Below are positions 60,735-62,585 of a stretch of 64,000 nt of DNA, one piece after another. Numbering within the stretch: position 1 is the stretch's first letter; every line of letters starts with the position of its first letter. The DNA comes from Escherichia phage NHEP10. The stretch lies in the sequence record PQ511148.1, one strand, 5' to 3'. The position numbers and the translations under genes are program-made. The notes beneath the pieces are model-generated. The model searched no databases. It was not told where the DNA came from and worked only from the letters and a program-made list of their open reading frames with translations.

Positions 60735-60780
60735 AACGTTTTATTCATTCCACTTAGTTGATATGGATATAGTACCATTA

Positions 60781-60942
60781 TCAGTGTTGATTGTAAACGG
60801 CTTTTTCTACGCTTTTAACGTAATTGGTATAGTCTTCCTGTTCGTACGAGTGTAAGGCCAAGAACGGAACTAATAGTTCATTATAGACTAAAGCCTCACG
60901 CTCACGTTCGGCCTCTACTACGTTCTGAAGATTATGACTCAT
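60781..60942 (-). CDS. hypothetical small acidic protein (asiA.1-like by position)
   Basis: 53 aa from MSHNLQN with SD AAGGA; the longer track ORF is unsupported. Confidence 0.4.
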   Translation of the reverse strand: MSHNLQNVVEAEREREALVYNELLVPFLALHSYEQEDYTNYVKSVEKAVYNQH

Positions 60943-61231
60943 ATCGTTCCTTATAACTATCAATATAGTCCTGTATGTCGAAGAATGACATTTCATATTC
61001 TAGGGCATTAAGAGCCCGTTCTTCAGAATAGTCAGAACCAAAGACGATAGTGATTTCACCAGGCTTCATGTGATTGAAATCAACACTAAAAGGAATACGA
61101 GAACATACTTCGTCTGCCATATCTGCAACAACACTATGATATACTTCTCGGTTAACCTGATAAAGCTCTGCAAGTTCTTCGCATCGAATAACAAGTTCAG
61201 TGGCAGGATTTTCTTTGATTTTAGTAAGCAT
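60932..61231 (-). CDS. acidic protein, Arn-like candidate by synteny
   Basis: 99 aa from MLTKIKENP; strongly acidic; located between asiA and motA where T4 has arn. Family not verified. Confidence 0.4.
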   Translation of the reverse strand: MLTKIKENPATELVIRCEELAELYQVNREVYHSVVADMADEVCSRIPFSVDFNHMKPGEITIVFGSDYSEERALNALEYEMSFFDIQDYIDSYKERYES

Positions 61232-61314
61232 AGTCTTTACCCTTATGTTTTTGTTTGCGTTTAGATTGAAGTTCTGATTTCTTCTTGTCCTTATGGACAG
61301 AAGCCTTATTGAAA

Positions 61315-61533
61315 TCATGTTTTGCTACAAGATTGTTCATAATGATTTATAACCTCATTTAAACATTTATCGGTAAAAGAAAACTTTTTAGCCACAGAAC
61401 ATTCGATGATGTGTTCTTTCAAATCTTTAGAGTCAGTATAACCCATCTCAGTAATAAAGTGGCGAATTAAAGCTTTATTCTTATCATTAACAGAATTAAA
61501 ATAATCTGCTTTAGAATCAATTATTCTCATCAT
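61315..61533 (-). CDS. hypothetical protein
   Basis: 72-aa ORF. Confidence 0.4.
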   Translation of the reverse strand: MMRIIDSKADYFNSVNDKNKALIRHFITEMGYTDSKDLKEHIIECSVAKKFSFTDKCLNEVINHYEQSCSKT

Positions 61534-61798
61534 CTAATTTCCTTAATTGATACTGCAACGAGCTAATAATTTCTTCGTTCATTTTAATATACATGTCACG
61601 CAAGAAAGGTTTTAACCCTTCACGAATAATTGCTAATGTATCACCTTTACATAGATTGACCAAATAAGGATGATCTAAAGCATCCCAACCGGGCTGATTA
61701 GCATACATACCATAGTTTTCTTCCATCATATGATTAAGACGTTTGATATCTTGGATACGTGATTCAATAGCATCTTTCTGGAGCTGTTTAATATTCAT
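61517..61798 (-). CDS. hypothetical protein
   Basis: 93-aa ORF. Confidence 0.4.
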   Translation of the reverse strand: MNIKQLQKDAIESRIQDIKRLNHMMEENYGMYANQPGWDALDHPYLVNLCKGDTLAIIREGLKPFLRDMYIKMNEEIISSLQYQLRKLDDENN

Positions 61799-62259
61799 TA
61801 ATAAAGGTCCTCTGAATAAAGTTCTTTCTCACTTCCACCGCGTTCAATACGTACCTGTCCAGCATACGTTGCAATAATCATTGCTTCTTCACGAGTCCAG
61901 TAATTAGAGTATTGGTCAATAAAGCCTTGGTCGTCACCACAAACTTGTTGTGAGACTAATTGAGGACCAACTATGTCAAGTACTTCAGCCATATCTTTAG
62001 AGTAATGACGAACTCCAGGAATAACCAGAGTTCCACCGCTCTTCAATTTAAACCTATTAGCTGCACATACTATAACACGTTGAACTTTTTGGTCATTATT
62101 CCAATAGCACGTTTGCCAACAGATTTCAGGAACTTCATTCATTACATCATCAGCAGAATAATTATAACCATAGGACTGAAATTTTTCTGCTAGACTTTCA
62201 GGAGTCTCACGAGACAAGGCCAAATCTAATAGCTCTAAACGTTCTTTAAATGATTTCAT
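61798..62259 (-). CDS. hypothetical protein
   Basis: 153-aa ORF with several Cys residues. Confidence 0.45.
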
Positions 62260-62585
62260 TTAAACCATTCCTTAATACGTTGCCAAATAGATTTTTGTGC
62301 TTGTTTATTTACACCAATCGAACGAATAACCGGTTGTGACTGTTGATATTCTTTATAATCTTCTTTATAGATTTCGTAAGCTGCATCAACAAATGAACTG
62401 ATCGCTGCCATAAAGTTTTTACGAAGGCCAAATGGCGCGTCGTTATTTTCACGAATAACCGTATATTGGCCTGCTTTAATCTTTACAATTGTCCCTAAAT
62501 AAGCCCCGTGGTACCAAATATCCCATCCTTCCTGAGTAGGTTCTGCACATTTACGAAGTTCGTTAATAATATTCAGCTTATTCAT
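62256..62585 (-). CDS. hypothetical protein
   Basis: 109-aa ORF. Confidence 0.45.

Follow-up and report, generated by a model that had tools for sequence, protein, structure and literature searches.

The acidic 99-residue protein encoded between asiA and motA in the RB69-like phage NHEP10 is very probably a deeply diverged Arn

We analysed a stretch of 64,000 nucleotides (nt) from Escherichia phage NHEP10 (PQ511148.1; hereafter the window), in which a row of small genes lies between asiA and motA. An initial annotation of positions 60,735–62,585, made from the letters alone, had singled out a strongly acidic open reading frame (ORF) of 99 residues as a candidate Arn-like protein and left it undecided whether the gene was arn or a replacement. 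Our results indicate that this ORF is very probably orthologous to T4 arn, though highly diverged, rather than an unrelated gene in its place. The NHEP10 window is that of an RB69-like Mosigvirus: its DNA over 60400–63300 was 98.9% identical to phage NHEP11 and 97.1% identical to RB69, and its relatives were RB69-like phages of that genus. The RB69 reference row reads asiA, ORF258c, ORF259c, arn.1–arn.4 and motA, with no gene named arn, and the T4 record reads asiA, asiA.1, arn, arn.1, arn.2, arn.3, arn.4 and motA. The T4 order given by the initial annotation, arn with arn.1–arn.4, was confirmed by this record, except that asiA.1 had been left out. Overall, the locus is mostly ordinary, consisting of a diverged Arn member and known T4-type genes.

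Direct comparison gave little sign of this relationship. BLASTP of the 99-residue ORF against T4 Arn aligned just 38 residues, at 24% identity, and identity in a joint alignment of the two families was approximately 19%. The Pfam model for Arn, DM_Arn (PF22134; gathering score 26 bits), scored T4 Arn at 186.7 bits and gave no match to the ORF with the threshold relaxed to E = 10, and few acidic positions were conserved between the ORF259c and T4 Arn families. These observations weigh against orthology, as does the fact that only one of five AlphaFold2 models of the ORF was confident, the remaining four having predicted local distance difference test (pLDDT) scores of 41–47. The low pairwise identity and the missing Pfam match, together with the choice of the RB69 annotators not to name the gene arn, would suit a non-homologous replacement, in which an unrelated small acidic gene came to occupy the arn slot and resembles Arn by convergence or chance. 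Scans of the ORF with Pfam, NCBIfam and PADLOC returned no match in any of them. A search of 5.8 billion proteins returned, for the ORF and for T4 Arn, only the narrow family of the query itself (6 and 11 clusters, respectively), and tblastn on a set of 50,697 phage records recovered T4-type arn and the ORF259c type as disjoint sets.

The two families are joined by a metagenomic protein of 91 residues, P0026, which emerged when 1.84 billion representatives were searched exhaustively with a profile. In pairwise BLASTP, P0026 matched T4 Arn with 33% identity over 90 residues (E = 7e-11) and the 99-residue ORF with 29% identity over 89 residues (E = 3e-15), and these full-length, significant matches to both families argue against replacement. 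P0026 itself scored 16 bits with DM_Arn (E = 0.015). Its tblastn search returned 647 phage records; among the matches listed, every one was arn or an ORF259c-type gene. A profile built from T4-type Arn, P0026 and the Klebsiella phage KP179 protein gp257, with ORF259c-type sequences left out, also speaks against replacement: it matched the 99-residue ORF with E = 9.7e-10, the next best of the 546 ORF segments of the window reaching only E = 0.67. Profile–profile comparison with hhalign aligned the ORF259c family with the T4 Arn family over their full length (residues 10–90 against 8–91; probability 79.5%, E = 1.5e-5). When the ORF259c family profile was searched against PDB sequences, the sole match below E = 0.1 was 3WX4, which is T4 Arn (E = 0.0029), and phrog_3151, named 'inhibitor of MrcBC restriction', matched the ORF with E = 0.0028. 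Both families have a collinear hydrophobic pattern and a C-terminal motif, [FY]-[DE]-[IL]-x-D-Y-[IFL], whose xDY[IF] core is a further point against convergence. Invariant positions of the joint alignment were M1, L20 and Y89 alone, with Y31, G58, L74 and D88 nearly invariant. Common ancestry with T4 Arn is therefore detectable by profile and transitive search.

Gene order points the same way. The ORF lies between arn.1 and asiA.1/asiA, and the same slot order (a small DUF7230 ORF, a gene of roughly 91–99 residues, an AsiA.1-type gene beginning MSHNL, then AsiA) was common to T4, the RB69 type, VR25 (Gaprivervirus) and the metagenomic contig that encodes P0026 (L015). The row on this contig comprised the C terminus of the small ORF, P0026, the MSHNL gene, asiA and holin t. 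Klebsiella phage KP179 (Jiaodavirus) had this order as well, with two extra genes before asiA. In T4 and NHEP10 alike, the stop of the small ORF overlaps the start of the arn-slot gene, and the stop of the latter is overlapped by the start of the AsiA.1-type gene; overlaps of the same kind with the flanking small genes were found in all lineages, which again disfavours replacement. The proteins are similar in length, 99 residues against 92 in T4, the ORF having nine extra C-terminal residues (SYKERYES), and the phages differ in that the DNA of the ORF's phage carries arabinose, not glucose. Because synteny, the P0026 bridge and the profiles link the two families, the absence of similarity to Arn that the initial annotation had named as grounds for dropping its proposal was not what we found; its candidate emerged as a diverged arn. 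Replacement is largely refuted, and we regard it as very unlikely.

We also compared predicted structures. The best AlphaFold2 model of the ORF, built from a 15-sequence alignment, had a pLDDT of 82 and agreed with an independent BFVD model of a homolog at a template modelling (TM) score of 0.95. Foldseek searches with this model gave the highest TM-score, 0.65, to 3WX4, the crystal structure of T4 Arn (probability 1.00), so that the predicted model has the fold of that structure. It also matched the KP179 protein (Foldseek probability 0.99) and other uncharacterised proteins of Klebsiella and Escherichia phages. On the evidence of this model, the ORF and T4 Arn are predicted to have the same α/β fold; they also have the same size and a strongly negative charge. 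The ORF contains 21 Asp and Glu residues against 9 Lys and Arg (net charge −12, isoelectric point (pI) 4.37), and T4 Arn contains 16 against 7 (pI 4.55). It was thus rightly described as strongly acidic, and it carries the strong net negative charge of Arn-type DNA mimics.

The reading frame itself is given differently in public records. The NHEP11 record lists the acidic ORF as 128 residues, with a start at 61318. We rejected this reading: in place of the ATG on which it depends, Bas47 and VR25 have ACG, and T4 lacks that ATG. By comparison, the ATG of the 99-residue frame and an AAGGG upstream of it, at a spacing of 8 nt, were kept in T4, RB69, VR25, Bas42 and Bas47, and all homologs of the protein start at the same point, with MLTK, MITK or MIID. 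Because the start codon and AAGGG are kept across lineages and the homologs begin together, the 99-residue reading is correct; AAGGG is a putative ribosome-binding site. At its other end, the gene's stop is overlapped by 11 nt by the AsiA.1-type start. The family to which the ORF belongs, RB69ORF259c or phrog_8202, occurs in Mosigvirus, some Tequatrovirus, Gaprivervirus and Dhakavirus, and tblastn found the gene full-length in 178 phage records. Identity to the ORF was 100% in NHEP11, 88–98% in other close, mainly Mosigvirus, records, 82% in Bas42 (a Tequatrovirus) and 31–35% in the VR25/IME341 type. T4-type arn was present in 485 phage records, mostly of Tequatrovirus, with identities never below 88%. 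Separately, the Arn-type family profile matched P0027, a protein of 1,879 residues, with E = 2.6e-5 over four short stretches, possibly as a low-complexity or repeat artefact.

Considering that T4 Arn is an inhibitor of McrBC (which acts on non-glucosylated hydroxymethyl-cytosine DNA), that it has been modelled as a DNA mimic binding McrB and that it also binds H-NS (PMC12707154), we examined what the diverged allele might do. Under the explanation that we consider best, and reasonably likely as a whole, the 99-residue ORF would be the Mosigvirus (RB69-type) allele of T-even arn, descended with T4 arn from a common ancestor, and would act as a DNA mimic as T4 Arn does. By analogy with T4 Arn, the small acidic protein would be made early in infection and would sit on the surface with which host DNA-sensing proteins bind DNA. 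Its prime candidate target would be McrBC, which cuts hydroxymethyl-cytosine DNA before sugar modification; H-NS or other DNA-sensing defence systems would be further possible targets. DNA mimicry by this protein is suggested by the analogy, and on whether McrBC specifically is the target we are evenly divided. The principle is presumably one that it would have in common with T7 Ocr, ArdA and lambda Gam, that of a small, very acidic protein placed on the DNA-binding sites of defence proteins; these proteins are described as non-homologous (PMC12707154), and none of them was among the structural matches listed for the AlphaFold2 model.

Several observations weigh against simply transferring the function of T4 Arn. 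T4 Arn binds the PUA domain of the PUA-Cal-HAD defence and thereby blocks that system too (2026 preprint, PMC12871103). T2 Arn, approximately 97% identical to T4 Arn with three positions differing, neither binds nor inhibits PUA-Cal-HAD, and the single change N70S abolishes inhibition by T4 Arn (PMC12871103). Because a near-identical protein and a single substitution lose this activity, function is not safely transferable from T4 Arn, and in our reading of the joint alignment the 99-residue ORF has a serine at the position aligned with N70. The literature that we searched contained neither an argument nor an experiment in support of the ORF259c type being Arn, and the paper on RB69 DNA modification mentions neither Arn, McrBC nor ORF259c.

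These sensitivities lend some weight to a different reading, in which the protein retains the ancestry and fold of Arn but has lost McrBC inhibition and blocks another host factor, such as H-NS, a system resembling PUA-Cal-HAD or an enzyme of the GmrSD/BrxU type, which recognises sugar-modified cytosine. Divergence along the row fits this reading. Between NHEP10 and T4, arn was much the most diverged gene, at no more than 24% identity (over 38 residues), whereas the small ORF was 79% identical, arn.1 79%, arn.2 41%, arn.3 76%, arn.4 76%, asiA 73% and motA 51%. The Arn-type gene also varied more than arn.3 among close relatives: records at least 95% identical to the window gene numbered 57 of 178 for the Arn type and 97 for arn.3. 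Mosigvirus DNA, in addition, is modified with arabinosyl-hydroxymethyl-cytosine, not the glucosyl form (PMC8594841). Finally, both alleles occur inside Tequatrovirus: Bas42 (Escherichia phage AndreasVesalius, classified as Tequatrovirus; extract L009, 701–1015) has, in place of the T4 type, an RB69-type arn allele of 82% identity, a distribution that points to host defences driving the exchange of alleles. A changed target is a serious rival because the greatest divergence of the row and this RB69-type allele in a Tequatrovirus form the pattern of an arms race with exchange of alleles. High divergence alone, however, is no proof that a target has changed, and new DNA in both genera presumably passes through an unglycosylated hydroxymethyl-cytosine state that McrBC attacks, so that pressure from McrBC should hold for both. 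Given this intermediate in both genera, the same role, that of an early acidic decoy, would be the most likely one for the 99-residue protein, and we consider a change of target unlikely, although far from negligible. We therefore retain the reading of the ORF as a DNA-mimicking arn allele.

The distribution of alleles extends beyond the Escherichia phages. Because the Tequatrovirus Bas42 carries the RB69-type allele, the arn slot exchanges alleles across genus boundaries. In KP179, gp257 (92 residues; extract L010, 1610–1888) occupies the same slot and ends in YDIGDYL; two additional genes sit between it and asiA. Searched in a small database, both Arn-family profiles recovered gp257 (E = 3e-5 and 0.012). 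T4-like phages of Klebsiella are probably within the range of the Arn superfamily. Public annotation of the arn locus is unreliable. In the BASEL records of Bas47 (Mosigvirus) and Bas42, the ORF259c-type gene is annotated as 'anti-restriction nuclease protein Arn', so that the assignment of this type to Arn is already in annotation and is not new, and most other records call the gene hypothetical. In many records, including those of NHEP11 and KP179, the label 'anti-restriction nuclease' is placed on homologs of arn.1, arn.3 or arn.4, and phrog_4452, the arn.1 family, carries the same name. The misplaced nuclease label appears to have been propagated from gene names through phrog_4452 and not from evidence.

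Table 1 Genes and signals of the asiA–motA row in the NHEP10 window
Feature	Positions	Strand	Basis
asiA (anti-sigma-70 factor; flanking marker)	60462–60734	minus	Pfam AsiA E = 2.4e-32; 73% identity to T4 AsiA
AsiA.1-type gene, 53 residues (RB69ORF258c type)	60781–60942	minus	phrog_5245 E = 1.2e-30
Arn-type gene, 99 residues, acidic (RB69ORF259c type)	60932–61231	minus	phrog_8202
Shine–Dalgarno-like AAGGG	61240–61244	minus	8 nt upstream of the 99-residue ORF's ATG (61231–61229); read from the sequence
39-residue lysine-rich ORF (DUF7230 / phrog_1359)	61221–61340	minus	Pfam PF23876 49.3 bits; phrog_1359 E = 3.8e-22
arn.1 ortholog, 72 residues	61315–61533	minus	phrog_4452 E = 3.2e-40
arn.2 ortholog, 93 residues	61517–61798	minus	phrog_1844 E = 1.2e-40
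arn.3 ortholog, 153 residues	61798–62259	minus	phrog_839 E = 3.1e-70
arn.4 ortholog, 109 residues	62256–62585	minus	phrog_1594 E = 1.2e-52
motA (middle-transcription activator; flanking marker)	62596–63228	minus	Pfam MotA_activ E = 1.1e-39, MotCF E = 2.1e-8; 51% identity to T4 MotA

All ORFs of the interval lie on the minus strand, and the six that the initial annotation had named were each present where it had placed them (Table 1). Each of the six matched a PHROG family with E = 1e-30 to 1e-70. By sequence similarity, the five that it had listed beside the acidic ORF as being of unknown function are orthologs of T4 AsiA.1 and Arn.1–Arn.4, and it had overlooked a seventh gene, of 39 codons. 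Several ORFs of the row are short (39–72 residues) and public records disagree over start codons, as would be expected if some were annotation artefacts and not all were expressed. Against this, every ORF had a strong PHROG match and all were conserved across genera, at 33–80% protein identity to their VR25 orthologs; the smallest showed a clear synonymous-substitution signature, and RNA spanning arn.4 to arn is abundant in T2 (bioRxiv 10.64898/2026.06.19.733364). Artefacts are accordingly the least probable of the alternatives that we weighed, and we conclude that the interval consists of genuine genes and not of ORFs that arose by chance.

The seventh gene encodes the lysine-rich sequence MNNLVAKHDFNKASVHKDKKKSELQSKRKQKHKGKDYAY and overlaps both the 3′ end of arn.1 and the Arn-type start codon. 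It belongs to DUF7230: the Pfam model PF23876 (gathering score 27) matched it at 49.3 bits (E = 5.4e-13), its T4 counterpart at 44.9 bits and that of VR25 at 49.2 bits. Between arn.1 and the Arn-type gene lie 83 nt that were better conserved than arn across T4, RB69, VR25 and Bas42. Comparison of T4 with VR25 revealed a coding signature: of the codon changes, 17 were synonymous and 3 non-synonymous, and third positions accounted for 16 of the 22 differences. The ORF was found in 1,485 phage records, among them Vibrio, Aeromonas and Proteus phages that lack arn, and has been left unannotated in RB69 and in T4 (NC_000866, complement 161580–161699). Neither the sequence nor its profile had a PDB match at E = 10, and we found no paper on DUF7230. 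We also considered and rejected the identification of this protein as ArfA: its profile scored a provisional sequence of E. coli ArfA at −0.5 bits, the median of approximately 2,000 shuffles, with filters off.

Among the remaining small genes, the AsiA.1 type was conserved only in its N terminus, MSHNL..., which recurred in T4 AsiA.1, VR25 gp175 (E = 5.9e-8), KP179 gp259 and contig L015. The arn.1 product was 79% identical to the annotated 43-residue T4 Arn.1 and 57% identical to VR25 Arn.1; that of arn.2 was 41% identical to T4 Arn.2 and 62% to VR25 Arn.2; and that of arn.4 was 76% identical to the annotated 68-residue T4 Arn.4 and 75% to its VR25 counterpart. No Pfam, NCBIfam or PDB sequence match assigned a function to AsiA.1 or Arn.1–Arn.4. 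A 2026 preprint reports that T2 transcribes arn.4 to arn as a single abundant RNA, which the host small RNA ArcZ stabilises, and states the functions of arn.1–arn.4 as unknown (bioRxiv 10.64898/2026.06.19.733364). The same preprint treats the 70-nt region between arn.2 and arn.1 as non-coding, with an RNase E site. We found that the T4 arn.1 frame is open through this 'intergenic region' after arn.2 (NC_000866, approximately 161806–161898, complement; extract L003, 2807–2899). The open stretch encodes a sequence ending in AREINSKSDYFNSLNDKDKNLIRHFIVE before the annotated methionine, and this extension is conserved with the 72-residue RB69-type Arn.1 (window 61447–61533) and the 65-residue Arn.1 of VR25, in which a leucine replaces the annotated T4 start methionine. 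Judged by this conservation, TTG could be the real start of T4 arn.1, the candidate codon lying at NC_000866, complement 161890–161892. In PADLOC scans, Arn.2 matched Hp1 weakly (E = 7e-4) and Arn.4 matched REase_II over 32 residues (E = 1.7e-3), both probably by chance.

Arn.3, which was 76% identical to its T4 ortholog and 80% identical to that of VR25, consists of two dissimilar parts. Its C-terminal domain (approximately residues 45–153; window 61798–62125, minus strand) occurred in 1,599 phage records, well beyond the T-even phages: in phiKZ-like Pseudomonas jumbo phages, 158-kb Salmonella phages, 146–152-kb Escherichia phages and Acinetobacter phages, with genomes of Kuttervirus size included. 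No Pfam or PDB match was found for this domain, and a single-sequence structure prediction of Arn.3 reached a pLDDT of 43. Residues 1–30 (window 62170–62259, minus strand) matched positions 1–30 of the 77 in the PADLOC profile PD-T4-9_B (E = 1.8e-7), a match that was repeated with VR25 Arn.3 (E = 6.9e-7) and, more weakly, with T4 Arn.3 (E = 0.0026). PD-T4-9 corresponds to CmdTAC, whose second gene is taken as the CmdA antitoxin. The CmdA protein has the accession WP_053886482.1. CmdTAC from ECOR22 restricts most T-even phages of the BASEL collection, and only Bas35 and Bas38 escape. CmdA has been described as a pair of N-terminal helices with a disordered tail behind them, whereas Arn.3 matches only the first 30 profile positions and then runs on into an unrelated, widely conserved domain. 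The match did not extend over the whole profile, and no CmdT toxin or SecB-like chaperone gene lies nearby. Searches for a CmdA-like gene to compare by tblastn (plasmids and phages), blastn (E. coli genomes), a pattern scan of contigs and PHROGs returned none. The likeness of Arn.3 to CmdA is therefore a weak and partial resemblance, not membership, although a role as an antitoxin mimic is conceivable from the sequence match; the restriction of most BASEL T-even phages by CmdTAC counts against such a role.

We also scanned the region for promoters. A strict MotA-box middle-promoter pattern had no site in 60400–63400, and a sigma-70 scan of the region gave 11 sites against 11.7 expected by chance, which is no excess. 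Across the whole window, the strict T4 middle-promoter pattern TGCTTNA-N11-13-TANNNT occurred 14 times, against 3.9 expected from shuffles, with 12 of the 14 sites on the minus strand. Beyond the asiA end of the row, the plus strand carries the holin gene t and a glycine-rich ORF of 259 residues. The latter (58977–59756), which contains glycine runs, sits on a G+C peak of 0.53–0.56 against approximately 0.35 around it; we take it to be a T2/T6-type gp38 tail-fibre adhesin.

These results leave unchanged what is known of how Arn works. They indicate that standard tools miss diverged members, the Pfam model having no match and PHROGs placing the RB69 type in a separate family of 'unknown function'. 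A bolder reading, to which we give little credence, is that the row from motA to asiA is a counter-defence cassette with components that differ greatly in evolutionary rate. In such a cassette, the hypervariable arn slot, with at least four allele types (T4, RB69, VR25/IME341 and P0026/KP179), may have diverged to disarm different DNA-sensing defences, the RB69-type allele may be tuned to the enemies of arabinosyl-hydroxymethyl-cytosine DNA, the N-terminal helix pair of Arn.3 may be copied from or mimic CmdA and neutralise CmdT-like mRNA ADP-ribosyltransferase toxins, and the 39-residue DUF7230 gene, which T4 also has, may be another conserved participant. More securely, Arn is not limited to T4-like Tequatrovirus and forms a deeply diverged superfamily that holds one conserved slot in several T-even genera. 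Because arn evolves very fast relative to the slow arn.3 and the small DUF7230 gene, it is an arms-race gene, and its allele series (T4, RB69, VR25, P0026 and KP179) therefore constitutes a ready panel for learning which defence a DNA mimic blocks.

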